This document shows, piece by piece, positions 497-56,645 of a DNA stretch of 64,000 bases. Positions within the stretch are counted from its first letter, which is position 1. Each line of letters begins with the position of its first letter. The translations under genes were made by a program, and so were the position numbers. Below the pieces are notes generated by a model that saw only the letters and a list, made by a program, of their open reading frames with translations, did not search any database and was not told where the DNA came from. This DNA is from a bacterium (GTDB taxonomy: Bacteria > Sumerlaeota > Sumerlaeia > SLMS01), in contig WGMQ01000030.1 in the NCBI GenBank assembly GCA_016125005.1, forward strand, positions 101 to 64,100. Direction: 5' to 3'.

Positions 497-2062
497 ATGT
501 CCCAGCGTTCTGCCCTGCTTTCCGTTAGCGACAAAACCGGTCTCGTGGAGATCGCCCAGGCCCTCGCCAACGCTGGGGTCCGTCTCATCTCCACTGGCGG
601 AACGGCCGCGGCGCTGCGCAAGGCAGGCCTCACCGTTCTGGACATCTCCGAGGTCACCGGCTTCCCCGAGGTCATGGACGGGCGCGTGAAGACCCTCCAC
701 CCTGCCGTCCACGGCGGCCTGCTCGCCCGCCGCGATGTCCCCGAGCACATGCAGGTCCTCACCGACCACGGCTTCTCCACCATCGACTTCGTCGTCGTGA
801 ACCTCTACCCCTTCGTGAAGACCGCCCAGGACACCTCCAAGTCCCTTGAGGAAGTCATCGAGCAGATCGACATCGGCGGTCCCTCGATGCTCCGCTCCGC
901 GTCGAAGAATTACGAGTCGGTGACCGTCGTGACCGACCCGGCCGACTATCCGCGTGTAATCGCCCAGCTCGCCGAGTCCGGCGCCACCACCAAGGCCTTC
1001 CGCGCCGAGCTGGCCGCCAAGGTCTTCCAGCAGACCTCCGCCTACGACGCCGCCATCGCCAGCTACCTGTCTGCCAAGGCCCTCGAAGGGGCCGAGGAGC
1101 GAGGCAACTGGCCCTCCGTCTTCACGGTCTCCATGCCCCTCGCCCAGACGATGCGCTATGGCGAAAACCCGCACCAGGCCGCGGCGTTCTATCGCGACCC
1201 CGCCTGCTCGGAGACGAGCGTTGCCGGAGCACGCCAGCTCCACGGCAAGGAGCTGAGCTACAACAACATCCTCGACGCGGAAGGCGCGCTGGAGATGGTG
1301 CGCGATTTCACCGACCTCGCCCCCGCTGCCGCCGTCATCGTCAAGCATAGCAACCCCTGCGGCATCGCCCTCGGCAAGTCAGTTTTCGAGGCCTACGAGC
1401 GCGCCCGCGAAACTGATCCCGACTCGGCCTTCGGCGGCATCGTGGCGCTTTCCACTGAGGTCGACGAGGAAGCAGCAAAGGCCATCGGCGCCACCTTCAA
1501 CGAGATCGTCATCGCCCCCTCTTTCAGCGAAGGCGCCCTCGCCGAGCTGACCAAGAAGAAGAACCTGCGCCTCCTTGCCACCGGTCCCTTCACGCCGAAG
1601 AAGAACACGCTGATTGTTCGCGGTGTCGTGGGCGGCGCCGTGGTGACGGAGCGTGACCTCGGGATGATCACCGCCGCGGAGCTCAAGCCCGTGACGGCGC
1701 TTGTGCCGGGTGCCGACGACTTGGCCGCGCTGCTCTTCGCCTGGCGCTGCGTCAAGTGGGTGAAGTCCAACGCCATCGTCTATACCAGCGCCACGGCGAC
1801 GCTGGGCATCGGCGCGGGCCAGATGTCCCGCATCGACTCGGCCAACATCGGCGCCATGAAGAGCCGCAAGCCGCTCGCGGGAGCCTTCATGGCCAGCGAC
1901 GCCTTCTTCCCCTTCCGCGACTGCGTGGACATCGCCGCGAAGCACGGCATCAAGGCCATCATCCAGCCCGGCGGTTCCGTCCGGGACGAGGAGTCCATTG
2001 CCGCCGCCAACGAGAAGGGAATCGCAATGGTCTTCACCGGTGTGCGCCACTTCCGCCACTGA
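497..2062 (+). CDS. purH: bifunctional AICAR transformylase / IMP cyclohydrolase
   Basis: Frame of the 583-aa ORF. From MSQRSALLSVSDKTGLVEIAQALANAGVRLISTGGTAAAL it reads as the MGS-like cyclohydrolase domain followed by the AICARFT domain (KHSNPCG, IQPGGSVRD, FTGVRHFRH C-terminus). Start moved to ATG 497; the 62 upstream codons look non-coding. Confidence 0.95.
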   Translation: MSQRSALLSVSDKTGLVEIAQALANAGVRLISTGGTAAALRKAGLTVLDISEVTGFPEVMDGRVKTLHPAVHGGLLARRDVPEHMQVLTDHGFSTIDFVVVNLYPFVKTAQDTSKSLEEVIEQIDIGGPSMLRSASKNYESVTVVTDPADYPRVIAQLAESGATTKAFRAELAAKVFQQTSAYDAAIASYLSAKALEGAEERGNWPSVFTVSMPLAQTMRYGENPHQAAAFYRDPACSETSVAGARQLHGKELSYNNILDAEGALEMVRDFTDLAPAAAVIVKHSNPCGIALGKSVFEAYERARETDPDSAFGGIVALSTEVDEEAAKAIGATFNEIVIAPSFSEGALAELTKKKNLRLLATGPFTPKKNTLIVRGVVGGAVVTERDLGMITAAELKPVTALVPGADDLAALLFAWRCVKWVKSNAIVYTSATATLGIGAGQMSRIDSANIGAMKSRKPLAGAFMASDAFFPFRDCVDIAAKHGIKAIIQPGGSVRDEESIAAANEKGIAMVFTGVRHFRH

Positions 2063-2141
2063 GCCCGCACGCGGTGCGGCTTGACGTGGGGCAAGCAGTT
2101 GCCCTGTATTCCCCGCCTTGCGCGGGAGGACGCGCGTGCCG

Positions 2142-2801: not shown

Positions 2802-4006
2802 GCAATCCACTGCAGCAAACCGCCGGAGGGGCCAAGTCGGGCTTCCTGAACATGCCCAAGCTACCGGTGGCGGGGTTCTTCGCACGCCTTCTGGCGCTGC
2901 TGCTCGATCTCATCCTCATCATCGCTGGCCTGCATCTTGTGGCAAAGACCTTCGAGCATGCGATCTACTCGATCCCGCTTTGGGCTCCTTATCTCAGCGC
3001 GACGGTCACCTTTCTCTATTTTGTCATGCTAAATGGCCCCTACGGTCGCGGACAAACAATCGGCAAGATGGCGCTGCGGATCCGGGTGCGTGACTATGAT
3101 GGCGGTGTGATCACTTGGCGACAGGCCGTTATCCGGACAGTCGTGCTTTTTCCGACCTTTGTGACCGTGCCGCTCACTGCCCTGTTCGTCCATCCGGGTG
3201 TGGATGTGTGGCACGACTTCATCGCTGGTGTCCTGACACATAATCTGTTCTTGGGGATCCTTGTTGCGACGGCGCTTGTGATTCCATTTAACCCGTTTCG
3301 CCAGGGACTCCATGACTATGCGGCCAAGACGCTTGTTCAGAACGCCGACCCCAAGGAAGCGGTCACCTTCGACCAGCTGACGGAGCAAATCGGAGCCGGC
3401 TGGGTCCCGTTTCATCGTCAGCCCCAGTACTCCGGTCTAGTGACGGTGGCCCTTGTGGTGATCCTGCAGGCAGTCATGATGAACCCGGGGAACTTCACCG
3501 AGAAGCAGTCCGTCTTCCTCAAGAACGTCTATGCCCTGGCATCAAACCCGGGATTCGAGAAGAGCGCTCCAACCTACGCGCCGATCGAGGAGTCGCTCTA
3601 TCAGGCCGCCAAGCAGGAGGCTGAGGGATCAGACCCGGGAGCCACAGCACCGACCGTTGCCGATGACGAACCATCCACGGGACCTCTTCGGCTTGTCATT
3701 CAGGTCTCTCGCCCGCTGTCCTGGAGTGTGGATTTGGCAACTTCAGAGGGATTGAGATTGGCTAATGACTATCTCAGTGAATACCATGAGAAAGTAATCC
3801 CTGTTTTTCTCAGTTACGTGGAGGATTCCACTGACGAAGCAGCCAAACAGCGCGTTTCAAGCTGGTACGGACGCGAGATCGAGTATCATTTGTTGCTCGT
3901 TCAGAGTGTCAGCTTTGTCCCTTATCCGATGCTAATGCGTGAACAATCATCAGGCGTTCTCTCATTCCCGCCAATTCGGAAGTTCGAGCCAGAACCCAAA
4001 GAGTAG
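2798..4006 (+). CDS. RDD-family membrane protein with a C-terminal region of unknown function
   Basis: The N-terminal half has the RDD-family look (FFARLLALLLDLILIIAG, GQTIGKMALRIRV, GLHDYAAKT, several TM helices). The last ~200 aa match nothing I recognise. It is translationally coupled to the upstream gene by ATGA. Confidence 0.7.
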   Translation: MSNPLQQTAGGAKSGFLNMPKLPVAGFFARLLALLLDLILIIAGLHLVAKTFEHAIYSIPLWAPYLSATVTFLYFVMLNGPYGRGQTIGKMALRIRVRDYDGGVITWRQAVIRTVVLFPTFVTVPLTALFVHPGVDVWHDFIAGVLTHNLFLGILVATALVIPFNPFRQGLHDYAAKTLVQNADPKEAVTFDQLTEQIGAGWVPFHRQPQYSGLVTVALVVILQAVMMNPGNFTEKQSVFLKNVYALASNPGFEKSAPTYAPIEESLYQAAKQEAEGSDPGATAPTVADDEPSTGPLRLVIQVSRPLSWSVDLATSEGLRLANDYLSEYHEKVIPVFLSYVEDSTDEAAKQRVSSWYGREIEYHLLLVQSVSFVPYPMLMREQSSGVLSFPPIRKFEPEPKE

Positions 4007-7963: not shown

Positions 7964-7986
7964 ACGATGAGGTGAATTCAGGACCC

Positions 7987-16034: not shown

Positions 16035-16110
16035 CTGTATAGACAGGCGTCCGCAGCGGCGCCAAGGCTTGAGTGCGCACATCCGAGAGGCTGACCATCT
16101 GTCTATACAA
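16035..16110. repeat. inverted pair of the 12-mer CTGTCTATACA(G/A), 52 bp apart, in the vapC / giant-gene spacer
   Basis: CTGTATAGACAG at 16035-16046 and CTGTCTATACAA at 16099-16110. The reverse complement of the first matches the second at 11 of 12 positions. Confidence 0.75.
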
Positions 16111-19319: not shown

Positions 19320-19964
19320 ATGCTCAAGTCGCGCTATTTTGCCGTCACGTTTGGTCTTGTTGCAGTTCTCACGCTGTCCGCGGGATGCGGCAGCAAGAAG
19401 TCCCCGGAAACCCGCGGGACCTTTCCGAAGGAATCGGATATCAGCGCGGCCGACGCAGCAGCAGCCGCCGCAGCGGCCGATGCCTCCGCGAATGGTACTG
19501 TCCCCGATGCGGCCGGGCTTAACACCACGGACGCCACTACCCGCGCGCTCCCCTTCGATCCTGACACGCTTTCCATCTCCGAGCCCGCCGGCAAGTCCCT
19601 TGGCGAGTCGGGCGAAGCCATCCCCGAGCTGACGCCGGTCTATTTCGCCCTCGACAGCTACGATCTGGGCGACTCCGCCAAGACGCTGATCGGTCGTGCC
19701 GCCGGATACCTCAAGACGCACCAGGACCTCTACGTGGTGTTGCGTGGTCACTGCGACGACACGGGCACGGACGAGTACAACCTGGCGCTCGGTTCCCAGC
19801 GCGCCCAGGCGGTCCGCAAGCAGCTCATCGACGAGGGCATCGGCGCCATCCGCCTTGAGACCCTCAGCTTTGGCGAGTCCATGCCCGCCGTGGAGGGCAG
19901 CGACGAAGCAAGCCGCGCCCAGAACCGCCGCGTCGAGTTCTTCGTCTATACGATGAGCAAGTAA
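19320..19964 (+). CDS. pal: peptidoglycan-associated lipoprotein Pal-like
   Basis: MLKSRYFAVTFGLVAVLTLSAGC has a lipobox. The OmpA-like domain shows VYFALDSYDL, RGHCDDTGTDEYNLALGSQRA and NRRVEF. It is a tandem paralog of the preceding gene. Confidence 0.8.
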   Translation: MLKSRYFAVTFGLVAVLTLSAGCGSKKSPETRGTFPKESDISAADAAAAAAAADASANGTVPDAAGLNTTDATTRALPFDPDTLSISEPAGKSLGESGEAIPELTPVYFALDSYDLGDSAKTLIGRAAGYLKTHQDLYVVLRGHCDDTGTDEYNLALGSQRAQAVRKQLIDEGIGAIRLETLSFGESMPAVEGSDEASRAQNRRVEFFVYTMSK

Positions 19965-25622: not shown

Positions 25623-28600
25623 TCACAAGGTGCGTGACAGCTTCTTCAACTCTTCGACGATCAGTTCGGCGTGTTCCCAGCGATCTTCCTTCTTCTTCTG
25701 GAGACACTTGCTGACCGCCTCCCACAATCCGGGAGGAAGCCCTTCGATGGGGGTCGGCTCGCGGTGGATGTGCTGGTAGGCCAAGTCGCCTTCGGTGAAG
25801 GGAGGACGCCCATTGAGCAATTCGTAGAACATGATGCCGAAGGCGTAGATGTCCGCTCGATTGTCGACCGGGATACCCTGCACCTGCTCCGGTGACATGT
25901 AGAGCGGGGTGCCGATCACCGCGCCGATCATGGTGCCTTCACCCGCGCCGTCCATCAGCTTGGCGATGCCGAAGTCAGTCACCTTCACGTCGTCGCCGGA
26001 GGTGAGCATGATGTTGGCGGGCTTGATGTCGCGGTGCACGACGCCGACACGGTGGGCGTAGGCGAGCGCATCAGCGATCTGGATCGAGTACTTGAGCACG
26101 TCCTTGGTGGGCAGCTTGAAGTTCGGCGCGGACTTCATCTGGCGCTTGAGATCGCTGCCATCGACGTACTCCATGGAGATGTACTTGCGGCCCATTTCCT
26201 CGCCGATGTCGTGGATGCGGACGATATGCGGGTGGGAAAGCTTGCGGGCGTTGCGCGCCTCGATCTTGAAGCGACGAACGGCCTCGGGGTTGTTCGACAT
26301 GTTATCGGGCAGGATCTTGAGGGCGACGACTTCCTCGAGTTCCTTGTCGCGCGCACGGTACACGATACCCATCGCGCCGCGACCAAGTTCGTCCAGCAAC
26401 TCGTAGCGGCGGGCGGCCTCCTCGGACATTTGCTGCACGATGGAGGTCTTTTCGAAGGCCATCGGGTCCGACGTCGAGCCACTCAACATTTCGAAGCGGG
26501 TCTGCACGTCCTTGTAGTTGATGTCGGCCGCGAACAGCTGTCTATACACGGTCTTCGCGCCCACGAGGTCGCGCTTGGCCTCGTAGCGCTGGGCCAGGTC
26601 GTAGAGCAGTTCCTTCGTCTCGTCGTCCACGACGAGCTTCTTGAACTCCTGAAGGGCCAGGTCCAGCATCCCCTTGTTCGTGAAGCACTTGCCGAGCATC
26701 TTCGTCGACTCGGCCTCCCAGCGATAGTCCTGCGCGGTCTTCTGGAAGCAGCCAATCGCCTTGTCGAATTCCTGCTGGGCGAAGTAGAGGCGACCGAGCT
26801 TGAAGCGGGTCTCGGGGCTGTCCTTCTTGTCCAGCAACGCTGTATAGACAGTCGCCAGCTTCTCGATGACGACCGGCTCGGAGGGGCGCAGTTGATACGC
26901 CTTCTCCAGCATGCGGCAGGCATCGTCGAAGGCCGATGCGGCGAGGAGCATCTGCCCACGCATGAGCAGGGCCGTCAGGTTGTTGGCGTCCTTTGCGAGG
27001 ATCGACTCGAGCGCGCGGAGGATGTTGTTCTCCTGACCCGCGTGGCTCCGCCCGATGAAGTCGAGTTGCTCCAGCGCTTCGCGGAAGTACCCGAGCGAGA
27101 CGAGCAGTTCGACGAAGAACCAGCGCACGCGGAGCACCTCAGGGTACTCGTTGAGCAGCGTGGTGATGTGCCCCACGACGGCCTGGGGGTTCTCCGGGTT
27201 CACCTTGGCGGCCAGCTTGTAGCACTCGACAGCACGCACCAGGTCGTTGCGGCTGACGTAGACGCGCGCCATGGCCATCTGGAGCCGATCATTCTCGGGC
27301 TGGATTCCCAGCGCCTTGGCGTACAGCTTGGCGGCTTCCTCGTCTATACGCAGCTTCTGCCCATAGGCCAGCGCCAGGTTGACGAGCGCCTCGGGATCGT
27401 TGGCGTTGCGGCTGAGGATGCGCTGGTACTCCGCCACGGCCTCGTCGATCTTGTTGTCGTAGAGGGACGCAAGGGCGTTGAGACGCTGCAATTCGTCGTC
27501 GCCGGGGGCGACCTTGAGGAAGCGCTGGGTCACGCCGAGGGCGTTCTCGTAACGGTCCGCCTTGATGTAAGACTTGGCCAACTGACGCCCGGTCGCGATG
27601 TCGTCCTTGTAGTTGCGGAGGTGGTTTTCGTAGACGCTGATGCACTCGGCCTCGGTGCGATCCTGTGCGATGAGGACCCGCGCCAGCGCCGCCAGATACT
27701 CGGCGTTGTTTGGCTCGTGGCGGATGGCATCACGCAGCACGCGCTCAGCCTTGGGCTCAACGACCCGCAGCTTCACGTAGGCGTCGGCGAGCTGGGCGGT
27801 CAGCTTCTGGTTCACCTGTCCGCTATTGGCGAGCGCCTCAATGGAGCGGATCGCCAGATCGAAATTGGCCGTGAGTTGGGCGGCCTGGGCCAAGGCGCGC
27901 AACGTCGTCACGTCGCCGGGGTTGGCCTCGATGGAACGCTGGTAGATCTCGAGGGCCTCCTCGTCGTAGACACCGCGCTCGAAGAACACCGTGGCCAGCA
28001 TGCGAAGCAGGTCCTTGTCCTCGGGTCGCAGGCGCAGCGCGAGGCGGTAGGCGTGGAGACCCTCCTCGTCGCGGCGATTCTGCACCAGGCAGCACTGGGC
28101 CAGCATGAGGATCGCGGTCTGATCCTGCGGACTGACGCGGAGGGCGCTCTTCACCTCTTCGATGGCCTGACCGACCTGATTCTTCTGGAGCAGGATCGAG
28201 GCGAGGTGGAGGTACGCTGGGACGAAGTTCGAATTCAGGTCGAGCACCGCCTGGCAAAGGCTCTCCACCTGTGCATCGGACTTCTTTCCGTCTATACAGG
28301 CGAGCAGGTATGCCTCGAGGAACTCGCGGTCATCCAGGCGCGTCGGGTACTGCTGTTCGAAGACGGGGAGTGCCTTCGCCGTGAAGTTGCCGGTGCGTAT
28401 ATACGTCTCGCAGAGCGCACGATAGAGCGCCGGCGAGGTGACACCGCCGCGGAGGGCCGCACGCAGTCGCTTGCCCGCTTCCTCGTAGGCGCCAGCGGCC
28501 AAAGACACACGGCCGAGACCGTACTCGAGCAGGTGCGGCTCGGGAAAGCTGGCCATGGCCTTCTCGTAGATCGTGCCGGCTGCTGCCGTGGTGGTCGGTT

Positions 28601-40050: not shown

Positions 40051-41235
40051 ATGCCGACCAGCAGCCTAAAAGACCTAGTGGATAGTACCCAGGCACGGGT
40101 GCTCGTTGTCGACGACAACCCAGTGAACAGTGCCTTGCTCAAGACGCTTCTCGAGCGGGATCGGATCAAGTGCACCTTGGTGTCCTCAGGCGCTGATGCG
40201 CTCGACGAGTTCAGGCGCACCAACTTCGATCTGGTGCTGCTGGACATTGAGATGCCCGGGATTTCAGGTCTTGATGTGCTTCGGCAGTTGCGCAAGCGCC
40301 AGACTGCGCTGGCGTTCCTCCCCGTGATGCTGGTTACAGGCCGAACCGACATGGAGTCCCGCATCGAGGGACTTGAGGCCGGCGCCACCGATTTCATCAG
40401 CAAGCCCTTCGATCCGGCTGAGCTCGGTGCCCGCGTTCGGAACCACATCCAGGCCAAGCGACTTTACGATCGCCTGATGGTCACCAACACGCTCCTCAAG
40501 GAGGAGCGAGCCAAGATCTTCGAGGCGCAGGTCGCCCTGCTGCCCAGTTCCATGCCCGTGCGTCAGGGCCTGCGCTTCGGCGCGGGATATCAGGCCAGCA
40601 GCGTGGCCAGTGGCGACTACTACGACGTGATCGAGCGATCCAACGGCAACATCCTCCTCGCCGTCGCAGACGTCAGCGGCCACGGCATCGCCAGCGCCAT
40701 GCAGATGTCCATCCTGCGCGCGACCTTACGCGCACGAGCCGCCCACGGCGAATCGATCGAGGCCATCCTGGCAGAACTCAATGCCATCCTCCGCCACTCG
40801 CTTGATGACTACAGCTTCGTCACCTTCTATCTGGCCGAGTTCAACCAGACCTCCGGTATGCTAAACAGCGTCTCGGCCGGTCATCATTCGCCCCTTTGCC
40901 AGGACCTGCAAACAGGCGAGATCAGCGAACTCGTCGGCGAGACCTGCTGTCCGCTTGGTCTTGAACAGGACCTGGACATCGTCGTGGTGCGCCATCAGCT
41001 TCAGCCGGGACAGCGCCTGATCGTCTATACGGATGGGCTCATCGAGCAGACCAATCGGGCCGGTAAATACTTCGAACTCGACGGCGTTCGTTCCTGTCTA
41101 TACGAGACCGATCCCCAGGATCCGCAGCGGGCCGTCGACAAGCTTCTCTCCGACTTGCACCGCTTCCACGGCGACGAGCGCCCCAAGGACGACGTCACCG
41201 TCCTCGTGATGGACGTCATCAAGACTGCCCAGTGA
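40051..41235 (+). CDS. response-regulator receiver fused to PP2C (SpoIIE/RsbU-type) serine phosphatase
   Basis: The REC domain shows VLVVDDNPVN, DLVLLDIEMPGISG and KPF. The PP2C part shows GDYYDV, VADVSGHG and YTDGLIE. Confidence 0.85.
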   Translation: MPTSSLKDLVDSTQARVLVVDDNPVNSALLKTLLERDRIKCTLVSSGADALDEFRRTNFDLVLLDIEMPGISGLDVLRQLRKRQTALAFLPVMLVTGRTDMESRIEGLEAGATDFISKPFDPAELGARVRNHIQAKRLYDRLMVTNTLLKEERAKIFEAQVALLPSSMPVRQGLRFGAGYQASSVASGDYYDVIERSNGNILLAVADVSGHGIASAMQMSILRATLRARAAHGESIEAILAELNAILRHSLDDYSFVTFYLAEFNQTSGMLNSVSAGHHSPLCQDLQTGEISELVGETCCPLGLEQDLDIVVVRHQLQPGQRLIVYTDGLIEQTNRAGKYFELDGVRSCLYETDPQDPQRAVDKLLSDLHRFHGDERPKDDVTVLVMDVIKTAQ

Positions 41236-41237: not shown

Positions 41238-42452
41238 ATGAAGCGAGTCCTGGTCCTCAACGCCAACATCCGTGAGCGTGGCACCTGGTTCCGGGCGCGC
41301 AAGGTGGCCCGTGGCCTCTTCCATCGCGGGCATGACGTCACCTTTGTCTGCCAGGGTGAGGGGTGGTACCGACCGCGCATTCGTCAGAATCATCCCCGCT
41401 GGTTCGAATGGGAGACGGCCAGTTGGTCGCCGCTCCGCGTCGAGGAAGGACACGCGCCGCTCGCCGTCATGCAGCGCATCCTCAAGCTGCGCGGCCACTG
41501 GGATCTTGTCTATACGTTCAGTCACCTACCGGTCGACTCCGCCGTGGCCCACATGGTCCGTGACCGTTCCACCTTCTGGATCACCGATTGGTGCGACCTG
41601 TGGAATTCCACGCAGGGAGGCATCCATGATGTCCGCTGCTGGCCCAAGCCGCTGCCACCGTTCCTGACCGGATGGAAAGGGGTCTATACACGCTTCAGCC
41701 ATCGCCTCGAGGACGCCACCGAACGCCAAGTCGCGATCGACGCTGACGCGGTATCCATCATCGCGTCCCCCATGCTCGAGGAAACTCGCAAGCTCGGTAT
41801 AGACGACCGCCGCATCCTCCACATGATCTCGGGCGCCGACACCCGCAACATCAAGCCGCAGGATCGATCCGCCGCCCGGCGCCAACTATCCATCGACGAA
41901 GACGCCCTCCTCGCCGTTTACGTCGCCAACTTCACCCCGGACAATATCCAGTTGGAGCGGGCCCTCGAACTTTCGCTGAGGAACAACCCGCGCCTTCAGG
42001 TGCTCAGCGTCGGGCCACGCTGGTATCCCGAGAAGGGCTACATCGCCGAGCAGGTGCGCCGCGGTCGCGTCCTCGACATGGGACGCCGTCCCTTCGCCGA
42101 GATCCCCCTCTTCCTCGGCGCCGCCGACTTCCTCCTAATGCCCATCCGCGACACGCCGCTGAATCGCTGTCGCTGGCCCAACAAGTTCGGAGACTACATG
42201 GCCTCCGGACGCCCCACCGCGACCACCGACGTTGGCGACATGGGACGCGTTTGCCGCGAGTACAACGTCGGCATCGCCAGCGAGTCCACGCACGAGGGAC
42301 TCGCCCGCTCCATCGACCGACTTGCGGGCGATCCCGACCTGCGCGCATCCCTCGGGGCCAACGCCCTTCACGCAGCCCGGAACCATTTTTCCTGGGCCTC
42401 GCGTGTCCATCGCCTCGCCGCCTTCCTGAACTCCCACGGCGTCGACATCTAG
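41238..42452 (+). CDS. GT-B fold glycosyltransferase (family 4-like)
   Basis: ATG 41238 lies 3 nt after the upstream stop. KRVLVLNANIRERGTWFRARKVARGLFHRGHDVTF is a Rossmann-like N-domain. The C-domain has FLLMPIRD ... NKFGDYMASGRPTATTDVG. Confidence 0.75.
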   Translation: MKRVLVLNANIRERGTWFRARKVARGLFHRGHDVTFVCQGEGWYRPRIRQNHPRWFEWETASWSPLRVEEGHAPLAVMQRILKLRGHWDLVYTFSHLPVDSAVAHMVRDRSTFWITDWCDLWNSTQGGIHDVRCWPKPLPPFLTGWKGVYTRFSHRLEDATERQVAIDADAVSIIASPMLEETRKLGIDDRRILHMISGADTRNIKPQDRSAARRQLSIDEDALLAVYVANFTPDNIQLERALELSLRNNPRLQVLSVGPRWYPEKGYIAEQVRRGRVLDMGRRPFAEIPLFLGAADFLLMPIRDTPLNRCRWPNKFGDYMASGRPTATTDVGDMGRVCREYNVGIASESTHEGLARSIDRLAGDPDLRASLGANALHAARNHFSWASRVHRLAAFLNSHGVDI

Positions 42453-44052: not shown

Positions 44053-44877
44053 TCAGGAAAACAGGTCATCGGACTCGGGAAGGGAAAGTGGCTGCCCGGC
44101 CATCTCCGCAAAGACCATCGCATCGAGGATCGCGTTTCCATCGGGGTGATTGTTGAAGAAGGCGAGAGCCGTGGTCGCATTCTCGGCCGCATCCCGAATC
44201 ACTGGTACCCACGGCCTCAGTTCCCCCTGTGCGTAGCGATAGCGATAGCGGTCGCTTCCCGACGGGCTATCCCTGCCGTACCAAGTCTCGCCGTTGCGGC
44301 CGTGGAAACGGAAGTAGGCCAGCGGGCCGGTCTGTCTATACCGCGAGGACTGGGAAAGACCGCGCAGTGCTGGCTGGTCGATGGCCACGCGGGAGACGGC
44401 AAGGTCGCGCAGGAAGCCATCGGCCTCGTCCGTATCCCACGATGAATGGCGCAGCTCCACGGCGAGTGGAATGCCCGCGAGGCATCCGAAGATCTGCTGC
44501 ATCTTCTGCCGATCGGAGAGCGTGTTTCGCAGCGCATTCGGGAACTGGAGGAGAACCGCCATCAGGACTCCGGCCTCGCGGAACGGCGCCAGATACTCGA
44601 GAAACGGGTGCACCGTAGCGGAATCGGTCAGGCCGCGATGGGTCATGTCGCCCGGCGCCTTGATGGAGAACGCAAGCCGCCCTCCCGCATCGCGCACCTT
44701 GCGCCGCGCGGACTCCCGCTTCGGCGTGCCGTAGTAGGTGGCGTTGATCTCCAGCGCTCGGAAGACACCGGCGTAGTAGTCGAGCCGATGCGCCGTCGTG
44801 ACGTGTGGCGGATAGAACACGCCGCGCCAGTCGTCATATGCGTAGCCTGACGTACCGATGAGGAGCGGACCTGGCAT
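44053..44877 (-). CDS. DUF72 (UPF0759, YecE-like) protein
   Basis: Start moved to ATG 44877. MPGPLLIGTSGYAYDDWRGVFYP and LDYYAGVFRALEINATYY are present. The ATG shares its A with the polB stop (TGATG). Confidence 0.8.
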   Translation of the reverse strand: MPGPLLIGTSGYAYDDWRGVFYPPHVTTAHRLDYYAGVFRALEINATYYGTPKRESARRKVRDAGGRLAFSIKAPGDMTHRGLTDSATVHPFLEYLAPFREAGVLMAVLLQFPNALRNTLSDRQKMQQIFGCLAGIPLAVELRHSSWDTDEADGFLRDLAVSRVAIDQPALRGLSQSSRYRQTGPLAYFRFHGRNGETWYGRDSPSGSDRYRYRYAQGELRPWVPVIRDAAENATTALAFFNNHPDGNAILDAMVFAEMAGQPLSLPESDDLFS

Positions 44878-47216
44878 CAGGCAAGGCTCCCGAACAGGTC
44901 GGGCTGTATAGACGTGGTGCACACGGACCTGGCGCTCTTCTTCCGTTCCGGTGGTGCCCACGGCGGACGGACCTTCTTCTCGTCCAACTCAATGCCGCCG
45001 GGCCACAGCAGCGTATTCATGGCGCGGCGCAGCAACCGAATGTTCGCCACGGGATCGGCGGTGGTTTCGTGATCGATGAGTGCCTTGAGTCGCACGCGGC
45101 GGGAACGATCCTGATCGTCGGATGACGTGAGCACATAGGAGAGCGACTCGCCCGCATGGAGGTTCATTCCCGCAGCCACCGACTGGCGCGCGGCAAGCGA
45201 CTGGGCTCCGTTGCCGGTGTAGTCCTCGGGATCCTGCGAGAGGGACTGCCTGATGACGAGGTCGTCGAGCGGTACCTCATGGCGCCAGAGCGCGCCTTCC
45301 ATCTCGGCGATACGATCAAGCAACGTGGGCACCATCGCCCGGTAACCCGCTGCATCAGGGGGCTTGGCCAACTCGCGCAGCAACTCAAGCTGGGCGTTCT
45401 TCACATAGAGCGGCAGGTCGTGGCGACGGCACTCGATGCCGCGATACTTCACCGAGCCATCGCGAAATGCCCCGAAATAGCGCGTCGGAACGGGCATCTC
45501 GGGGTTCTGGCGCGAAGGGAGAAACGCTAGCCACTTGTATATACCCTCCAGCGCGATGGGCAGGCCGGTCACCTTCTGGATCTCCTCGCATAGCACCGGG
45601 ACTTCCGCGTCCTGAAACCCCGGCTTCACAATCCACACACAGTCGACATTCGCGTGGATCATGCGCCAACCACGTTCCTCGCAGACCTCGCGGGCCTGCA
45701 TCAGGATCTCGCGCGAATAGGCCGACACCGCCTCGTGGGCCTCGATACGACCGAAGCGGGCGTTGCGATAGCCGAGGTAACCGAAGCAACAAACCAGCAT
45801 CCACTTGAGCGCATCCTGTCGCGCATCCCAGCGCGCGTAGGCCACCGCGTCGCCAGCCTCCTTCGCCAGCTTGCGCAGGCGCTTGAACTCGACCCGCTTG
45901 GCGATGATCGGCGTGAGGGAACGGGACACAAGACCCGCGCGTTTCTCGCAGATTGTATAGTCGATCTGCGGCACCGTTCGGTTGCTGCAACAGGGGCAAT
46001 TCACCGTCTCCGGCGAGACGTTGAAGCGGGACATGATGCTCGGGTACATGGCGACGAAATCCAGCTCGACGACGTTCTCATGGAAGCCTGTTTCCGGCGC
46101 ATAGACAATACCGCCCCGGTCCGCCTTCAGCAGTTGACGCGCGCTCTTCCACGCCTCGGGCTGCGTCTTCTTCCACGGAACCAGAAAGCCCTCGCGCCAG
46201 GCGTGATCGAGCTGGATCGAGGAAATGCCCGTGCCGATGCTGCGCCGCGCGATACGCTGGATGGGGATGCGCGAGAGACGGGCAACCTCGAAGAGGCCAT
46301 CCATGCCATCGTGCGAGAGCGCGAAGGAGTTCTTGCGATCCAGATGCCAGCGCCCGCGCAGCGCATGTTCCGGCGCCTGGTACAGGATCTTGCCGTAGGA
46401 AAAGTACGAACGCCCCTCCGTCCTGGCCTCGCGCGGCGGCGGCTCGTCGCGATCCAGCCGGATCGGAAAACGCATCCGCTGTGCGAGTGTATAGACAAGC
46501 GGGAACAGGAACGAATCGCCACTGTCCGTCAGCAACACATCCGGGTCCAGATCGTCGAGCGCCCGCTGAAACCCCGCCAGCAGCTCATACGGATCCTCCC
46601 AGGTCAGCACGCGCCCCTCGCACTCCATCGTCAGCGAACGAAGCTCTGTGCGCTTCTCATGTAATGTCCCCTCGCCACGCAACTCCGCCACACGCAACGG
46701 CGGCGTGGCGTACTGCGTCAGCCAACGATCGTCACCTTCCTCCCGCGCCAGCGACAGCAACCGCCCGCCCTCATGCTCCACGCGACAACGCATCAGCGGA
46801 TAGACATCGCGCTCGAAACCGTACACCTGCTCCGCCAGCAAGTCCGCGTTGTACCATGAGAGTAGCGGAAACTTGTCCGCATGACGATCCAGCGCACGGC
46901 GCCACGTTTCGATGCGCAGGAGCCGGAACGCGAACACACGACGGGGCTCGCCCGTCCAGAAGTCGCGGCGCTCCATCCACCCCACCGGCGCCGCATCGCG
47001 CGCCTTCTCCATCACGCGAGCACAGCCCGCCACGTCCTCCTCCGGACCATCGACAAACACCAGCGGCTCGAACGGCTCCACCAACCGCAGGCGCTCGCCA
47101 TCGTCGGTAATGAACCAGAGCACCACCGCATTGCCGACGGCGTGGTAATCGAAGAGCCAACCGGTCGCGTTCACGGCGCGCAAAATCCAGTGGAAATACG
47201 ACGCGAAGCATGGCAT
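44877..47216 (-). CDS. polB: family-B DNA polymerase, Pol II-like, with degenerate exonuclease and altered polymerase motifs
   Basis: Start moved to ATG 47216, giving 779 aa. Motif A is VVELDFVAMYPSIM, motif B is ALKWMLVCCFGYLGY and motif C is MIHANVDCVWI. The Exo I/II regions read PPLRVAELRGEGT and DPDVLLTDSGDSFLFPLVYTLAQR. Confidence 0.85.
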   Translation of the reverse strand: MPCFASYFHWILRAVNATGWLFDYHAVGNAVVLWFITDDGERLRLVEPFEPLVFVDGPEEDVAGCARVMEKARDAAPVGWMERRDFWTGEPRRVFAFRLLRIETWRRALDRHADKFPLLSWYNADLLAEQVYGFERDVYPLMRCRVEHEGGRLLSLAREEGDDRWLTQYATPPLRVAELRGEGTLHEKRTELRSLTMECEGRVLTWEDPYELLAGFQRALDDLDPDVLLTDSGDSFLFPLVYTLAQRMRFPIRLDRDEPPPREARTEGRSYFSYGKILYQAPEHALRGRWHLDRKNSFALSHDGMDGLFEVARLSRIPIQRIARRSIGTGISSIQLDHAWREGFLVPWKKTQPEAWKSARQLLKADRGGIVYAPETGFHENVVELDFVAMYPSIMSRFNVSPETVNCPCCSNRTVPQIDYTICEKRAGLVSRSLTPIIAKRVEFKRLRKLAKEAGDAVAYARWDARQDALKWMLVCCFGYLGYRNARFGRIEAHEAVSAYSREILMQAREVCEERGWRMIHANVDCVWIVKPGFQDAEVPVLCEEIQKVTGLPIALEGIYKWLAFLPSRQNPEMPVPTRYFGAFRDGSVKYRGIECRRHDLPLYVKNAQLELLRELAKPPDAAGYRAMVPTLLDRIAEMEGALWRHEVPLDDLVIRQSLSQDPEDYTGNGAQSLAARQSVAAGMNLHAGESLSYVLTSSDDQDRSRRVRLKALIDHETTADPVANIRLLRRAMNTLLWPGGIELDEKKVRPPWAPPERKKSARSVCTTSIQPDLFGSLA

Positions 47217-47249
47217 GATCGTTCCACTTTCAGGCAAGGAGCCTCGGCC

Positions 47250-47477: not shown

Positions 47478-47493
47478 AGAGAGTCACTCGCGT

Positions 47494-48352: not shown

Positions 48353-48358
48353 GGCGAA

Positions 48359-48388: not shown

Positions 48389-48896
48389 GGGCATCCTCAG
48401 GGGCGGCGATGCCGGGGGGCCGGGGGCGCATTTTTGACGGTGTTACCGTCTGAGCCTCTCCTCGGTGCCGGGCACAGTCCCTGTGATGGTGCATGGATGC
48501 TTCGATTCTCCTTCCGCGGTCCCGGTCCGGAAGGCGGGAGTAGTCCCGGGAAGGGTCGGACAGGCGGGGGACCGAGGGCCTCCGACGCGGCATCCTGTGG
48601 GACCCACTACCGGGGTCCGAGCCCCACCCGACTGATGTCCCCACCATGAATGGATGGGGCTACAATTGTTAGGGTCCCTGCCGGGACCGCGGCCGGCGAG
48701 GACCAAGCCGACTTCGATGGCGGGAACAAGGCTGAGATGCTCCCCTTTCGCAGCCTCCCCCCATCGCCCTTGACGGCCCCGGATCGCTCCGGCATTCATT
48801 GTGCGTCGCTTGGATGCCTTTGCAGCCCCGGGTGCAAATCAGCCAGGCGCGGGCCTCGCCCCCGCCCAACCAACACCAAGCAGAGCACCAGCCACG

Positions 48897-50353: not shown

Positions 50354-52105
50354 ATGTTTCGTCACCTCATTGCCCTGTTCGCGCTGGCCGCCCTGATCAC
50401 CTCGGGGCGGCTTGCCGCATCCGGCCCCTTCCACGAGACCGATCGCGAGATCACCTTCGAGCCGGGCGTCCGCGTGCTCCTCAACACGTCCGACGCGCCG
50501 CTTGCGGGGAAGCCGACCACGCTGATCCTGTACGCGCTCCCCAACGGCAACACGATCGAGCAAACCGTCGGGAAGATGCGTGGCGAAGGTGTGCACTGGC
50601 GCTTCGACATCCAGCACATCGGCGCCCAGACGCGGAAGCTCCGCTCCGCCGACAGCACGCGCAACTACGCGGTGGCCTATCTGGAAGCGGACGGCAAGAG
50701 CTGGCCGACTTGGCGCAAGAAGCAGGCGCAGGCGGGCGACGCGCGCATCCGCGAAATCGTCGAGTCCCTGAGGGGGGACGTCGAGGCGACCTTCGGCACC
50801 ACCGATGTGGCGCTGGTCGGCCACAGCGGCGGCGGCAGCCTTGAATCGGGGTTCCTCAACGCCTACACGGAACTCCCCGCGTTCCTCTCCCGCGTTGTCT
50901 ATCTCGACAGCAACTACAGCTTCGACGCCGAGGCAGGTCACGGGACGAAGCTGGCGAATTGGCTGGAGGCGGACCCGCGTCACACGCTGGTTGTGCTGGC
51001 CTATGACGACCGCAACGTGGAGTTGGACGGGAAGAAGATCATCACGTCCGACACGGGTGGCACCTGGCGCGCAACCGAGCGTATGGCGGCGGCCCTGCAG
51101 GCCGAGGGCGTCATCCTTGAGGAAGGGGAACGCGGCGCCTATCGTCGCCTTTTCGCGCCCCAGGTCGAGATGCTGATGCACCGCAACCCCGAGCTGAAGA
51201 TCCTGCACACGGCGCTCGTCGGCGACCGCAGCGGCTACCTGCACGCGCTGACCGTCCGCACCGCGCTGGAGGACAAGGTCGTCACCTTCGATGGGCCTCG
51301 CGAATGGGAGGAGTATATCGCCAAGGACGAGCCCAACGTCTATCCATCTATACAGCAAATTCCGCCCCGCGCCGCCGACGCTCCGACCGGCAGTGCCTTC
51401 ATCGAGTCGATCGCCGACCTCCCCCGCCAGGAGCGCGAGGCGGCCGTCAAGACACAGCTATTGGCTGGCAACATCCCGAACTTCCTCCGCCGGACCGTCC
51501 CCCTCACCGTCGAGGCCCTCGGCCTGGAGGGCACCAGTCACACCGCCACGCTGGAAGTCATGCCCGACTACCTCGCCATCGGCAGCGACGAGGACTTCGT
51601 GCGGATGCCCATGAATCCCCACACGGCGCAGGCTTTCTGCGATGCATTCGGCTTCGTGATGCCCACCCGCAAGATGGTGAATGACATCTGGGCCGCGTCG
51701 GATATCAAGATCGAGCCGCATCCCCTCACCGAGGCCCGCGACGCGACACGCACCTTCCTCCAGCACGACCGCATCATCATGGAGCAGTTGGCCGGGCGTA
51801 CCGGCTTCGTGGCCGGACACAAGAAGGACGTCGTCATCTCGAACCGTATATACGAGAAGCCGAATCGCGTGGCGATCTACGGCTGGCACTATATCACGGG
51901 AAAGCCCATCCAGCCGCTGACCATCGTCCATGTGGATTGGTACGTGGACTACAGCCACGGCATCCGCCCGGTGCGCCGCATGATCCGTATAGACGGCAAG
52001 CGCGACCTCCCGTTCGAGGAAGTGCTCGCCGATCCGCACCTCAACAACCTGCTGAGCGACGAAGGCACCATCGCCAAGCCGCGATACGAAATCCCCGCTG
52101 AATAA
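50354..52105 (+). CDS. exported two-domain protein: alpha/beta-hydrolase-like N-domain plus unknown C-domain
   Basis: Start moved to ATG 50354, 8 nt after the radical SAM stop. It has a signal peptide (MFRHLIALFALAALITSGRLAASG) and a GxSxG-like LVGHSGGGS. The C-terminal domain shows YLAIGSDEDFVRMPMNPHTAQ, IYGWHYITGKPIQPL and VDYSHGIRPV. Confidence 0.6.
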   Translation: MFRHLIALFALAALITSGRLAASGPFHETDREITFEPGVRVLLNTSDAPLAGKPTTLILYALPNGNTIEQTVGKMRGEGVHWRFDIQHIGAQTRKLRSADSTRNYAVAYLEADGKSWPTWRKKQAQAGDARIREIVESLRGDVEATFGTTDVALVGHSGGGSLESGFLNAYTELPAFLSRVVYLDSNYSFDAEAGHGTKLANWLEADPRHTLVVLAYDDRNVELDGKKIITSDTGGTWRATERMAAALQAEGVILEEGERGAYRRLFAPQVEMLMHRNPELKILHTALVGDRSGYLHALTVRTALEDKVVTFDGPREWEEYIAKDEPNVYPSIQQIPPRAADAPTGSAFIESIADLPRQEREAAVKTQLLAGNIPNFLRRTVPLTVEALGLEGTSHTATLEVMPDYLAIGSDEDFVRMPMNPHTAQAFCDAFGFVMPTRKMVNDIWAASDIKIEPHPLTEARDATRTFLQHDRIIMEQLAGRTGFVAGHKKDVVISNRIYEKPNRVAIYGWHYITGKPIQPLTIVHVDWYVDYSHGIRPVRRMIRIDGKRDLPFEEVLADPHLNNLLSDEGTIAKPRYEIPAE

Positions 52106-54368: not shown

Positions 54369-55298
54369 ATGCCACCTCCCTACCTGAATGCTCATTGTCA
54401 CCTGGAGCTGTCCCACCTGAAGGGACGGCTCCGGGGTGATCGTCCCTTTCCCGAGTGGCTTCAGGACATCGTGCGCCTCAAGATGGCGTCCACCCCGGAG
54501 GAATCCGCCGCCGGGGCCCGGAGCGGGCTCGCTCGCCTGAGGGAAACGGGCACCACGGTGCTCTTCGATATCCTCTCAATGGACACGGCCCACGAGGCGA
54601 TCACCGAGGCGGAAGGGCTGCGCTCGATTCTCTTTCGCGAGGTCGCAGGATTCGCCCCCAACGAGGCTGAGATGCGGCTTGATGCGGCGCTGCTGCGCCA
54701 GGAAGCGCGAGGCGCGCTGCCCCCCGGCGCCTTTCACGGCCTGTCGCCCCATGCACCCTACACGGTGACGCCCGAGCTGTTCCGCCTTGTCGCCGACACG
54801 GCACGCCGACGCGGCCAGTGGCTCTGCATCCACGCCGCCGAGGTGGCGGAGGAGACGGAGATGCTCCGCCACGGCACGGGCCCGATGCACGACTTCCTGC
54901 ACCGCTGGCTGCCGTCGGGTTGGAAGCCGCCGGGACTCCGCCCCATCGAGCTGCTCTACGAGCAATCCTGCCTTGGCCCGGGGACATTGCTGGCCCACTG
55001 CAACGACGTGACTGACAGCGACATCGAGCTGATCCGCCGCACGGAAACCCGCGTGGTGGTGTGCCCGGGCACCCACGTTTACTTCGGGCGTGGGGCGTTT
55101 CCACTCGCGCGGCTGCTTGCGGCGGGAGTGCGATGCTATCTGGGCACTGATTCGCTCGCCTCGAACGAGGACCTGGACATGGCGCGGGAGGTCCGCCTCG
55201 CCTTCGAGCTTTGCGAGAAGCGCATTCCGCTCGAACAACTGGAGGAACTCGCCTCAGCGGGGCGGGCTGTCGACTTTCTGCCGGGCGCCACCACGTAG
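54369..55298 (+). CDS. amidohydrolase-superfamily deaminase-like protein (aminofutalosine / MTA deaminase-like)
   Basis: YLNAHCHLELSHL (HxH), SPHAPYT, IHAAE, LAHC and GTDSLAS give the metal ligands of the amidohydrolase fold in order. Confidence 0.7.
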   Translation: MPPPYLNAHCHLELSHLKGRLRGDRPFPEWLQDIVRLKMASTPEESAAGARSGLARLRETGTTVLFDILSMDTAHEAITEAEGLRSILFREVAGFAPNEAEMRLDAALLRQEARGALPPGAFHGLSPHAPYTVTPELFRLVADTARRRGQWLCIHAAEVAEETEMLRHGTGPMHDFLHRWLPSGWKPPGLRPIELLYEQSCLGPGTLLAHCNDVTDSDIELIRRTETRVVVCPGTHVYFGRGAFPLARLLAAGVRCYLGTDSLASNEDLDMAREVRLAFELCEKRIPLEQLEELASAGRAVDFLPGATT

Positions 55299-56645
55299 CT
55301 GCGTTGCCTTCACGAATCCCGCGATGCGGTCGATGACCGCCTTGCTCACGTGCCCCGGGTCCTTCAGGTCTGCCCGCGGCGTGCCTTCGCCGGGAATCAG
55401 CCAGCGGGAAGCCCCCGGTTCGGTCCTGACCCACAGATTGCGATACGCCTCGGCCAGCCGCTGCCATTCCTCGCGCTGCTGCTCCCCAGCCATGTAGTCG
55501 CGCTGGCCAAAGATCACCAGCACATCGCCGGAGCGCGCGTTGAGCGTGCGCAGTGGACTGATCTCCGCCAGTTCCTGCCACAAGCCAAAGGTGGCATCGT
55601 GGAAGATGTCGCTCGGCCACGTCTGGTGCATCTCGTCCTTGTTGCGAAGCGATTCCAGGTAATCCGGATACTCGGCATCGGCAAGCCCTGCCTCCGCCAG
55701 GAATCGCTGGTGAGCGATCTCGTAGGCGAGATTCGCCTGTGACGGGGGCGACAGCATCACCGAACCACCCATCCAGGTTTCCTCGCGCGCGAGAAGGAAC
55801 GCCGCATGTGCCGCCTCGTCGAAGCCCGCTGTATAGACGCTGGCGGGGTCCGACCAGGGGGCATCTCGCGCCAGGACGGCCAGGGCGCGCGCCTCCCCCA
55901 GCACATGCTTCTCCAGATCGCGGGCTGGCTGGCCGGAGTACGGCCCCATGCGGACCACCGCCACCCCGCGGGTCGCCAACCCCTGGGCCAAATCCCGCAG
56001 CGGCTTGTTACGGCCAAAGGTGCCGTCCACATCCACGGCGCCCTTCCCCGGCAGCAGGATCACGACGGGAACCCGTGCGCCCGCCGGAACGATGGGGCGA
56101 CTCAGGATGATTTCACGGGGCTCGAACTGGAGACGATCCAGTTCCACCGCCTGCTCCTCGAAGAGTGCCCGGTCGATGTAGTCGGCGTCCTTGAAGGGAA
56201 TGGCCGCGGCCAGATCCGTGTCTCGCTGCGGTTCAGGGCGGGTCGTTCGGTTGGCAGTCCACAGGCCTCGAAGCATCCGGGGCTTGGCGGTCGTGTCCCA
56301 CTCCAGCACCAGATCCATGCCGCCCTTCTCCAGGTCCACGGGCACCACAAGCCGCTGGATGCCTGCCGACTCGGATTGAATCCACGGCGCCTGAATGTAG
56401 CGAAGTTTCCCCCCCCGGTCGCTCACGTGGGCCTGCATGTGCTCCAGATCGGCCTTGCCGAGACGGGCCGCGAGGGACGGCGTGAAGTGACGCAGCAGTT
56501 CGTCGTTCCTCCCACCAAGGAACAGGCGCGTGATCGCATCGGCCTCGCGGACGTCCTCCGGCGGCGGGACGCGCCCGGCGGGGTTTGCGGCCAGCAGCGG
56601 GAGACAAAGAACCCACAGCCAGATGGTCCCCAGAAGCGCGCGCAT
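55254..56645 (-). CDS. exported alpha/beta-hydrolase-fold-like protein (nucleophile motif atypical)
   Basis: Start moved to ATG 56645 (MRALLGTIWLWVLCLPLLAANPAG signal peptide). PVVILLPGKGAVDVDG and VYTAGFDEAAH sit where GxSxG would be. The rest of the 685-aa ORF is spurious. Confidence 0.5.
   Translation of the reverse strand: MRALLGTIWLWVLCLPLLAANPAGRVPPPEDVREADAITRLFLGGRNDELLRHFTPSLAARLGKADLEHMQAHVSDRGGKLRYIQAPWIQSESAGIQRLVVPVDLEKGGMDLVLEWDTTAKPRMLRGLWTANRTTRPEPQRDTDLAAAIPFKDADYIDRALFEEQAVELDRLQFEPREIILSRPIVPAGARVPVVILLPGKGAVDVDGTFGRNKPLRDLAQGLATRGVAVVRMGPYSGQPARDLEKHVLGEARALAVLARDAPWSDPASVYTAGFDEAAHAAFLLAREETWMGGSVMLSPPSQANLAYEIAHQRFLAEAGLADAEYPDYLESLRNKDEMHQTWPSDIFHDATFGLWQELAEISPLRTLNARSGDVLVIFGQRDYMAGEQQREEWQRLAEAYRNLWVRTEPGASRWLIPGEGTPRADLKDPGHVSKAVIDRIAGFVKATQLRGGARQKVDSPPR

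Follow-up and report, generated by a model that had tools for sequence, protein, structure and literature searches.

To our knowledge, very few short words of extreme abundance have been described in bacteria, namely the uptake signal sequences (USS), the DNA uptake sequences (DUS), the highly iterated palindrome HIP1 and Chi. Each of these words opened a field of its own, be it transformation specificity, recombination hotspots or self/non-self discrimination. The FtsK-orienting polar sequences (KOPS) and the SpoIIIE recognition sequences (SRS) are octamers that are co-oriented with replication in more than 85 % of cases, and the known regulators of the HutC type have tens to a few hundred binding sites, which lie mostly in promoters. 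The operators of the HutC subfamily of GntR regulators follow the consensus NyGTMTAKACNy (PMC4494728), and natural operators of this type are imperfect palindromes (PMC4333415). In this study, we analyze an AT-rich octamer, GTCTATAC (GTATAGAC on the opposite strand; hereafter the word), which is present in 18 copies in a 64-kb stretch of Sumerlaeota DNA, designated the window (GCA_016125005.1, contig WGMQ01000030.1, positions 101 to 64,100). The metagenome contig to which the window belongs is 79.7 kb long, and the relatives of its polB and purH genes are labelled Candidatus Sumerlaeota or Sumerlaeia.

The abundance of the word had been noticed in an earlier inspection of the sequence alone, which is referred to as the original prediction and which leaned towards a DNA uptake sequence. 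The abundance is genuine and, to the extent that the literature could be searched, has not been described before. Literature searches for the word itself returned primer sequences only, those for Sumerlaeota in combination with uptake sequences, competence or pili gave nothing relevant, and the earlier statement that no function is described for this word agrees with the fact that no published description was found. Our preferred explanation, to which we assign a probability of roughly 40 %, is that the word serves as a lineage-specific mark of resident DNA, which would be read as duplex inside the cell by a dimeric and possibly GntR/HutC-like protein, installed by directional substitution, and mimicked by phage.

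Abundance of the word in the window

All 18 positions given in the original prediction (11 copies of GTCTATAC and seven of GTATAGAC on the plus strand) were found to carry exact copies. Dinucleotide-preserving shuffles predict 0.16 copies for the window, and none of 100 shuffles contained more than one. The zero-order expectation is 0.88 copies, and Markov models of orders 1–4 trained on the window predict 0.18–1.35 copies, orders of five and above being uninformative because their sub-words stem from the word itself. The rough chance figure of about one copy that had been put forward lies within the range of these values, 0.16 to 1.35 depending on the model. With an enrichment of about 100-fold and a density of about one copy per 3.6 kb, the AT-rich word is the single most exceptional 8-mer of a DNA with 63 % GC. 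The second most enriched 8-mer, GAAGAAGA/TCTTCTTC (16 copies versus 0.88 expected), appears unremarkable, being a coding word with triplet periodicity.

As claimed earlier, the word is usually preceded by a pyrimidine (17 of 18 copies) and followed by a purine (15 of 18), whereas the claim that it often forms the 12-mer CTGTCTATACAG was overstated, this exact 12-mer being found twice in the window. Beyond the positions −1 and +1, the 20 bases on each side of the copies are unrelated, and the copies are therefore independent sites and not members of one duplicated repeat family, a possibility which the original prediction had itself held against its proposal. A dispersed repeat element, such as a miniature inverted-repeat transposable element or a repetitive extragenic palindrome, was ruled out for the same lack of extended flanking similarity. 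The probability that the word is not a real feature, i.e. that it results from chance, compositional bias, a repeat family or remnants of sequencing adapters, is negligible in our view. The ends of CTGTCT...ATACAG superficially resemble the tips of the Tn5/Nextera mosaic end CTGTCTCTTATACACATCT, but no match to the mosaic end was obtained within 3 mismatches, which excludes an adapter artefact. In addition to the shuffles and the unrelated flanks, an artefact is opposed by the fact that the copies stand in frame in conserved genes and are found again in assemblies that were made independently of each other (NCBI, JGI and Logan).

Distribution among Sumerlaeota lineages

The word is also abundant in L002 (GCA_964269675.1), with 7 copies in 21.6 kb, and in the loci L003-5, with 6 copies in 21.6 kb. 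An unbiased scan of GTDB genomes with a word-pair pattern added L064, a Sumerlaeota metagenome-assembled genome (MAG) with 3 copies in 8 kb, and L068, a Sumerlaeia MAG with 5 copies in 8 kb. These two Sumerlaeota MAGs were the informative ones among the 120 matches listed, the remaining ones being chance matches and tandem repeats. Including the 18 copies in the 64 kb of the window, the total for about five word-rich lineages is 39 copies in 123 kb, and no other 8-mer ranks above the word in any of four word-rich host sets. Eight loci of about seven equally related but word-poor Sumerlaeota genomes hold 2 copies in 155 kb, and a control composed of the purH loci of unrelated, distant bacteria (about 50 % identity) from metagenome contigs holds 2 copies in 962 kb. 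The word-poor set includes the closest polB relative of the window (83 % identity), and the purH gene of the word-poor locus L206 is closer to that of the word-rich L002 (77 %) than the L002 gene is to that of the window. The trait is patchy, with gains or losses between lineages that are separated by about the distance of genera to families. No alternative word of the kind of a "dialect" stands out in the word-poor Sumerlaeota loci (pieces of 15–35 kb), where the strongest signal is a CRISPR array.

Two observations were made alongside this survey. The MAG GCA_030156535.1, from which the loci L208 and L211 both stem, has a polB gene 83 % identical to that of the window and a purH gene that is only 66–67 % identical, an uneven divergence for which gene transfer or a mixed bin is a possible cause. 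Three unrelated GC-rich IMG/VR contigs (L251, L254 and L315) carry one tandem pair of the word each, with the copies 10–11 nt apart (e.g. GTCTATACATGTCTATAC), and no further copies. These pairs look like local operator-type sites, whose frequency cannot be judged because the contigs were chosen by the search pattern.

The word in coding sequences

Synonymous codon shuffling of the window genes gave 1.3 ± 1.1 copies in coding sequence (maximum 5), as compared with 17 observed, a count to which site 44906 contributes two, as it falls into the overlap between the calls for DUF72 and polB. The V-Y-T tripeptides of the window genes (eight, or nine with the long DUF72 open reading frame, ORF) are all spelled GTC TAT ACN, although GTC combined with TAT is expected for V-Y in only about 13 % of cases, and the tripeptide itself is about fivefold more frequent than predicted from the amino acid frequencies. 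For the other frames, codons are used that make up only 2–3 % of their families, namely ATA (20 of 812 Ile codons), AGA (29 of 1311 Arg) and CTA (59 of 1899 Leu); TAT accounts for 139 of 435 Tyr codons. Within the window, 14 sites fall in 33.6 kb of genes with a high GC content at third codon positions (GC3), as against three in 18.9 kb, and the sites are clustered (coefficient of variation 1.5, p = 0.007).

The assignment of sixteen copies to nine host genes was correct, as were the proposed frame classes (V-Y-T eight times, x-I-D four times, Y-R-Q twice, C-L-Y and S-I-Q once each), the other two copies being intergenic. On the plus strand, the copy at 1778..1785 lies in purH (sense, frame 0, V-Y-T) and that at 19944..19951 at the 3′ end of an OmpA-family (Pal-like) gene (V-Y-T). 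The gene of a tetratricopeptide repeat (TPR) Ser/Thr kinase contains four copies, three of them antisense on the plus strand (26540..26547, V-Y-R-Q; 27342..27349, R-I-D; 28290..28297, C-I-D) and one in sense on the minus strand (26842..26849, V-Y-T). Two plus-strand copies are located in the gene of a response-regulator/PP2C (SpoIIE) phosphatase (41023..41030, V-Y-T; 41096..41103, sense frame 1, C-L-Y), and three in a GT4 glycosyltransferase gene, of which those at 41508..41515 and 41682..41689 are on the plus strand (both V-Y-T) and that at 41797..41804 is on the minus strand and antisense (G-I-D). The DUF72 gene has an antisense copy at 44334..44341 on the plus strand (Y-R-Q). The remaining intragenic copies are all on the minus strand: 44906..44913, near the DUF72 start and assigned to the C-terminus of polB (T-S-I-Q) provided that DUF72 starts as in its relatives; 46489..46496, likewise in polB (V-Y-T); 51987..51994, antisense in an unnamed gene at 50354-52105 (R-I-D); and 55831..55838, sense in an esterase-like gene at 55254-57311 (V-Y-T). 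The intergenic copies form an inverted pair with a gap of 56 nt and lie at 16037..16044 on the minus strand (CCTGTCTATACAGG), 33 nt upstream of the start of a minus-strand gene for a 1327-aa protein, and at 16101..16108 on the plus strand.

The comparison with relatives shows how such sites come about. At polB site 46489, the window encodes L-V-Y-T (CTT GTC TAT ACA), where relatives have L-L-Y-T, L-L-L-T or L-L-F-T, and it differs from the word-poor relatives by the change from leucine to valine and two more changes, one synonymous and one in the +1 flank, with no insertion or deletion (indel). The V-Y-T site in purH (1778) is shared at the same position by L003, whereas other relatives have GTC TAT GCx or GTG TAC xxx there. 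A second purH site is present in L003 only and is formed with the rare codons CGT ATA, the window having CGC ATC at this place. In the codon alignments of both genes, the sites differ by substitutions alone; the comparisons therefore indicate a turnover of sites and their independent creation. New sites come about through point substitutions, amino acid changes included. The proposal that the word is selected at the DNA level and tolerated by the proteins has gained support from the codon shuffles, from the uniform use of the word for V-Y-T and from the leucine-to-valine change in polB.

Shape of the motif and candidate reader

The 39 sites of the word-rich hosts yield the pooled motif YGTCTATACR, with a pyrimidine at −1 in 37 and a purine at +1 in 35 of them. 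The preferred flanks vary by lineage, C...G being typical of L002 and T...A of the window and L068. The 12-mer CTGTCTATACAG is a palindrome but for one base pair, and the full motif can be written as YGTMTATACR, a near-palindrome of 10–12 bp that often takes the form (C)TGTCTATACA(G). Among the 24 one-mismatch variants of the word, only two are enriched in the word-rich hosts, namely the perfect palindrome GTATATAC (6 copies versus 0.49 expected, i.e. 12-fold) and ATCTATAC (7 versus 0.98), while GTCTAGAC shows no enrichment. The dominant form, GTCTATAC, differs from its own reverse complement, and the palindrome is in the minority, with 6 versus 39 copies in the hosts. The recognized set is thus GTMTATAC in symmetric flanks, a hallmark of duplex recognition by a protein of two-fold symmetry.

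All one-mismatch relatives listed in the original prediction are present. The palindrome occurs in the window at 28397..28404, 45537..45544 and 51846..51853, and ATCTATAC is found at 51346..51353 on the plus strand. Further variants form the ends of a stem between the convergent genes for a histidine kinase and the TPR kinase, where a perfect 15-bp inverted repeat, GTATAGATTGCCAGC-TT-GCTGGCAATCTATAC, extends from 25575 to 25606 and is followed by a second ATCTATAC up to 25614. This hairpin, whose stem ends are the variants GTATAGAT/ATCTATAC, has a predicted RNA folding energy of −28.6 kcal/mol (z = −5.5) and is probably a bidirectional terminator.

Both GTCTATAC and GTATATAC fit the HutC-type consensus NyGTMTAKACNy, the tolerated C or A at position 3 corresponding to the degenerate M. 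The core consensus of the GntR/HutC operators, such as the dre sites of DasR/NagR, is the same down to this degenerate position (PMC4494728, PMC4333415), and like these operators the word is near- rather than perfectly palindromic. It differs from them in a copy number that is orders of magnitude higher and in that about 90 % of its sites are intragenic. Because the family consensus is exactly GTMTAKAC, a winged-helix dimer of the GntR/HutC type is the best candidate for the reader, as judged from the motif. An architectural protein-binding site had been named earlier as an alternative to uptake, and it is this alternative that is strengthened by the near-palindromic shape and the match to an operator consensus.

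A pair of related phages

A pattern scan of IMG/VR picked up IMGVR_UViG_3300045922_000220 (L452), a contig of 18,483 bp with a GC content of 0.647. It is a genuine phage and encodes a primase-helicase, an SNF2 helicase, a Sak4-like annealase, an SbcC-like ATPase, RusA, a large terminase, a portal and a major head protein. The contig contains 25 copies of the word and nine of the palindrome GTATATAC, for which 0.21 and 0.06 copies are expected, respectively. This corresponds to one site per 540 bp, i.e. five to seven times the density of the host window, and to an enrichment of the palindrome of about 150-fold. The sites are flanked as in the hosts (pyrimidine 23/25, purine 22/25), their orientation is 15:10 and their spacing looks random. 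Most are intragenic in both orientations, and tandem copies one helical turn apart are located in the intergenic region 12,646-13,024, between neighbouring gene calls. Such paired or tandem copies, to which those upstream of the 1327-aa gene in the window may be added, are a feature shared with the GntR/HutC operators.

The sister phage IMGVR_UViG_3300045912_000670 (L449), which is 76 % identical at the nucleotide level over 8.5 kb and has an 89 % identical major head protein, contains one copy of the word and one palindrome. At nine orthologous positions, it shows 1–5 mismatches or indels; seven of them differ by substitutions, while one site and the tandem pair are at indels. The sites were therefore made de novo in one phage lineage. 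In other primase-related phages, 20 copies were counted in 1.2 Mb. The sister phage has a weaker set of related enriched words of its own, namely ATCTATAT (4 copies versus 0.12 expected), ATCTAGAT (3 versus 0.09), ATCTATAC (3 versus 0.18) and TCTAGA (8 versus 2.5), in which AT..AT replaces GT..AC around the same TCTA[T/G]A core and which may, on the evidence of these counts, represent a second dialect (G-ATMTAKAT-Y). A host with this dialect was not found among the sampled Sumerlaeota loci.

Two places in the word-rich phage deserve mention. At 2382-2434, three copies 21–24 nt apart encode tandem P-S-I-Q-P in the Pro-rich C-terminal region of the gene for the Sak4-like annealase, a protein linker into which the word is thus being inscribed. 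An intergenic hairpin at 3089-3135, GGCGCCGG...CCGGCGCC, has a copy of the word in the loop, and a second copy follows directly, just upstream of the SNF2-helicase gene.

Repressor operators spread through a phage genome are known as the "stoperators" of cluster A mycobacteriophages, and the sites might accordingly be operators of a phage-encoded repressor, with the chromosomal copies being secondary. The 34 sites across the 18.5-kb contig, including the tandem intergenic copies, the related dialect of the sister phage and a gene for an XRE-type helix-turn-helix protein at the contig end would suit such a phage-centred origin. We nevertheless consider it very improbable, as most phage sites are intragenic and occur in both orientations and as chromosomal copies are found in purH, pal and polB of several distant lineages at different positions. 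The copies in housekeeping genes of distant lineages call for a pressure that is long-term and genome-wide, and not for a prophage.

The phage also bears on the uptake reading, according to which competent cells import word-bearing DNA via a receptor of the type IV pilus, so that biased uptake and recombination raise the copy number. Much of what is described above resembles DUS and USS, which are likewise short, exceed expectation by a factor of about 100 or more, occur on both strands and are placed in tolerated coding frames with an effect on peptide composition, and which are also clade-restricted with small lineage differences. The enrichment and density of the word can be placed in their range (although the density is three to four times below that of either), its coding frames come at the expense of the proteins, its flank preferences vary between the lineages to which it is restricted, and it has no strand polarity. 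The hairpin between convergent genes, made of near-word inverted repeats, points the same way; the inverted pairs at gene ends inferred by the original prediction, however, are poorly supported, since the only exact pair of the window, with its 56-nt gap, lies upstream of a gene and the real hairpin uses one-mismatch variants, so that the frequent terminator-type pairs of DUS were not found. The earlier suggestion to look for com and pil genes led to a type IV pilin-like gene in the window and a pilM/O/Q cluster beside purH in the word-rich L003, but as T2SSE ATPases and an N_methyl pilin are also encoded in the word-poor loci L215 and L217, the presence of pilus genes does not discriminate. 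The window protein in question (60110-60478, minus strand) consists of 122 aa, has a prepilin N-terminal methylation motif (KGFTLVEIMIVVAI...) and has geopilin and PilA as its best solved relatives (E = 1e-8).

The uptake reading is further opposed by the clustered, not evenly spaced sites, by the patchiness of the word among close lineages, and by its near-palindromic structure, which resembles a transcription factor operator and contrasts with the asymmetry of DUS and USS. The DUS of Neisseria belong mainly to the core genome and are seldom found in accessory DNA (PMC2397512), whereas the highest density of the word is found in a phage. As the phage is five to seven times denser in the word than its presumed hosts, a pure uptake drive does not fit, and uptake, which had been favoured in the original prediction, is no longer supported as the leading explanation in view of the phage density, the near-palindrome matching an operator consensus and the missing terminator-type pairs; we regard it as unlikely.

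A further parallel is HIP1 (GCGATCGC) of cyanobacteria, an octamer enriched 15- to 300-fold that occurs in coding and non-coding DNA, spread by substitution, is patchy and long had no known function. By analogy, the word could be the target of a DNA methyltransferase and accumulate by a methylation/mismatch-repair ratchet or because methylation enhances recombination or transformation. Comparable enrichment, spread by substitutions without indels and patchy phylogeny agree with this idea, as does the fact that one of the enriched one-off variants has its mismatch at position 1, which has also been described for HIP1 (PMC4390886); HIP1, with which the word shares these features, has been linked to methylation-dependent transformation (bioRxiv 10.64898/2026.06.24.733823). 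HIP1, however, is a perfect palindrome containing methyltransferase sites, whereas the dominant form of the word is not palindromic (9 palindromes versus 25 words also in the phage), and no methyltransferase was seen in the annotated ORFs analyzed. Moreover, the lytic phages Anabaena phage A-4L (L532) and Phormidium phage Pf-WMP4 (L533), whose hosts are rich in HIP1, contain no HIP1, no CGATCG and no GATC (about 157 GATC expected), and this extreme avoidance of the HIP1 core by the two cyanophages checked is the opposite of a phage saturated with the word. A HIP1-like mechanism is therefore quite unlikely in our opinion.

Strand orientation

In the window, the word is oriented 11:7, and overall the ratio is near even. 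The pooled likelihood, calculated for contigs of up to 64 kb, peaks at 50:50, and a skew of 75 % is worse by 1.5 log-likelihood units (lnL) and one of 85 % by 5.1 lnL. The number of sites in sense and antisense orientation is 20:9, a bias that fits three permitted sense frames versus two antisense frames, because GTA TAG holds a stop codon. KOPS and SRS, which are over-represented octamers like the word, differ from it in being polar. A replication switch near 44.5 kb, which could have accounted for the run of minus-strand copies, was considered and rejected, since the GC skew does not flip there and follows gene orientation. The suggestion of an FtsK-type polar word is therefore rejected on account of both the disfavoured 85 % skew and the missing skew flip.

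The same data are relevant to a Chi-like signal, at which a helicase-nuclease of the RecBCD/AddAB type would stop degrading and start recombinational repair, and which phages would gather in order to escape or exploit the enzyme. Like the word, Chi is a host-specific octamer found about once per 4 kb (one per 4.6 kb for Chi in Escherichia coli, as compared with one per 3.6 kb here), and phages may exceed the density of their host. Chi-enriched phages are documented, with phage LLS reaching 2.5 times the host density (PMC12315714), and close phages differing in the word would fit host-specific adaptation. In the Chi-rich phages, Chi is the top octamer, has a near-uniform orientation (20:3 and 32:0) and goes along with a lack of recombination genes (PMC12315714), whereas the word-rich phage shows 15:10 and has its own recombination module with Sak4-like, SbcC-like and RusA proteins. 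Chi is G-rich and polar and is read as an asymmetric single strand; the present motif is AT-rich and of the duplex type, with a palindromic variant co-enriched, and is unpolarized in host and phage, the skews of 75 and 85 % costing the likelihood losses given above. The DNA analyzed contains neither recBCD nor addAB genes. Of the original suggestion of a Chi-like word, the resemblance in density and phage enrichment stands, while the lack of polarity counts against it, and we consider this explanation distinctly improbable.

A proposed mark of resident DNA

The explanation that we prefer, a mark of resident DNA, can be formulated as follows. The word, as the core of the near-palindrome YGTMTATACR, would mark resident DNA lineage by lineage, and its intracellular reader would be a sequence-specific protein of two-fold symmetry that recognizes it as double-stranded DNA. 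Selection or drive would push resident DNA to gain sites via point substitutions, with the outcome of about one site per 3–4 kb of chromosome, in any frame that avoids a stop codon, and of one per 0.5 kb or so in a phage that infects these hosts. Binding of the protein may identify DNA as "own", e.g. because a DNA-processing machine is kept away from it or brought to it, and the copies in the phage may represent mimicry of the host mark.

Several points weigh against this explanation. The clustering of the sites in the window is not what a pure "coverage" function predicts. Sixteen of the 18 window sites lie within genes, namely in a variety of housekeeping genes that are unrelated to each other, rather than in the promoters of a limited regulon, and the DasR core GTCTAGAC belongs to the variants that are not enriched. 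No GntR/HutC gene was detected in the window, the related loci or the phage by means of Pfam tables and a crude scan for a GntR signature in about 350 kb, and neither a methyltransferase nor another candidate reader was recognized in the larger ORFs of the window (Pfam, NCBIfam, PADLOC) or in the gene tables of the related loci, all of these searches having covered a small fraction of any genome. The word-rich host DNA amounts to only about 123 kb, which limits the statistics on polarity and on core versus accessory genes. Finally, the link between phage and hosts is suggested by the shared word and by a similarity in tetranucleotide composition that is weak and suggestive only, and the CRISPR spacers of L211 gave no match to the phages or the word-rich loci.

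Other features of the window and its relatives

Beside the intergenic pair of word copies, two small overlapping ORFs are present on the minus strand (16141-16757), which by eye resemble a VapC (PIN-domain) toxin and its antitoxin. The 1327-aa protein encoded on the other side of the pair (12021-16004, minus strand) gave no match in Pfam, NCBIfam or PADLOC; its gene has a GC3 of 0.68, below that of the neighbouring genes, carries no copy of the word over its 4 kb and may have been acquired recently. A partner-switching module is represented by parts at 39731-41235 and 7972-8955, with an ORF of 102 aa, STAS-like by eye, directly upstream of the receiver-PP2C/SpoIIE phosphatase gene and an RsbW-like HATPase_c_2 protein elsewhere in the window. 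A conserved cluster of DUF8156, family-B DNA polymerase and DUF72 genes with overlapping stop and start codons is shared by the window (44053-48394, minus strand), L211, L215 and L217; in the window, an uncharacterized ORF of 245 aa (47657-48394) is located upstream in this cluster, and in L211 a CRISPR-Cas locus of type III-B (Cmr), which has 23 repeats, follows the DUF72 gene. No relatives of the DUF4832 protein were found in genome contigs, and scans of the window for tRNA genes and Rfam families gave no matches.

Implications

The word adds a new example to the hyper-abundant words, from an uncultured phylum and with a composition opposite to that of its genome. That it is a near-palindrome identical to the operator consensus of a transcription factor is new among such words, and if a reader of the GntR/HutC type is confirmed, it would be the first operator of this kind used at genome scale. 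In its widest form, which we regard as rather doubtful, the interpretation would be that some Sumerlaeota possess a previously undescribed genome-wide system of self-marking, in which GTMTATAC every few kb, or dialects such as ATMTAKAT, would allow a GntR/HutC-like or similar dimer to tell resident from foreign DNA or to gate DNA transactions, and in which phages would saturate their genomes with the dialect of their host. The two sister phages, which are 76 % identical and differ by 34 sites versus two, constitute a natural experiment, which indicates that whatever DNA resides in these hosts is subject to the pressure and which offers a handle for finding the reader. Irrespective of its function, the word could be of practical use as a marker, by which phages and mobile elements may be connected with Sumerlaeota hosts and chimeric bins be recognized.

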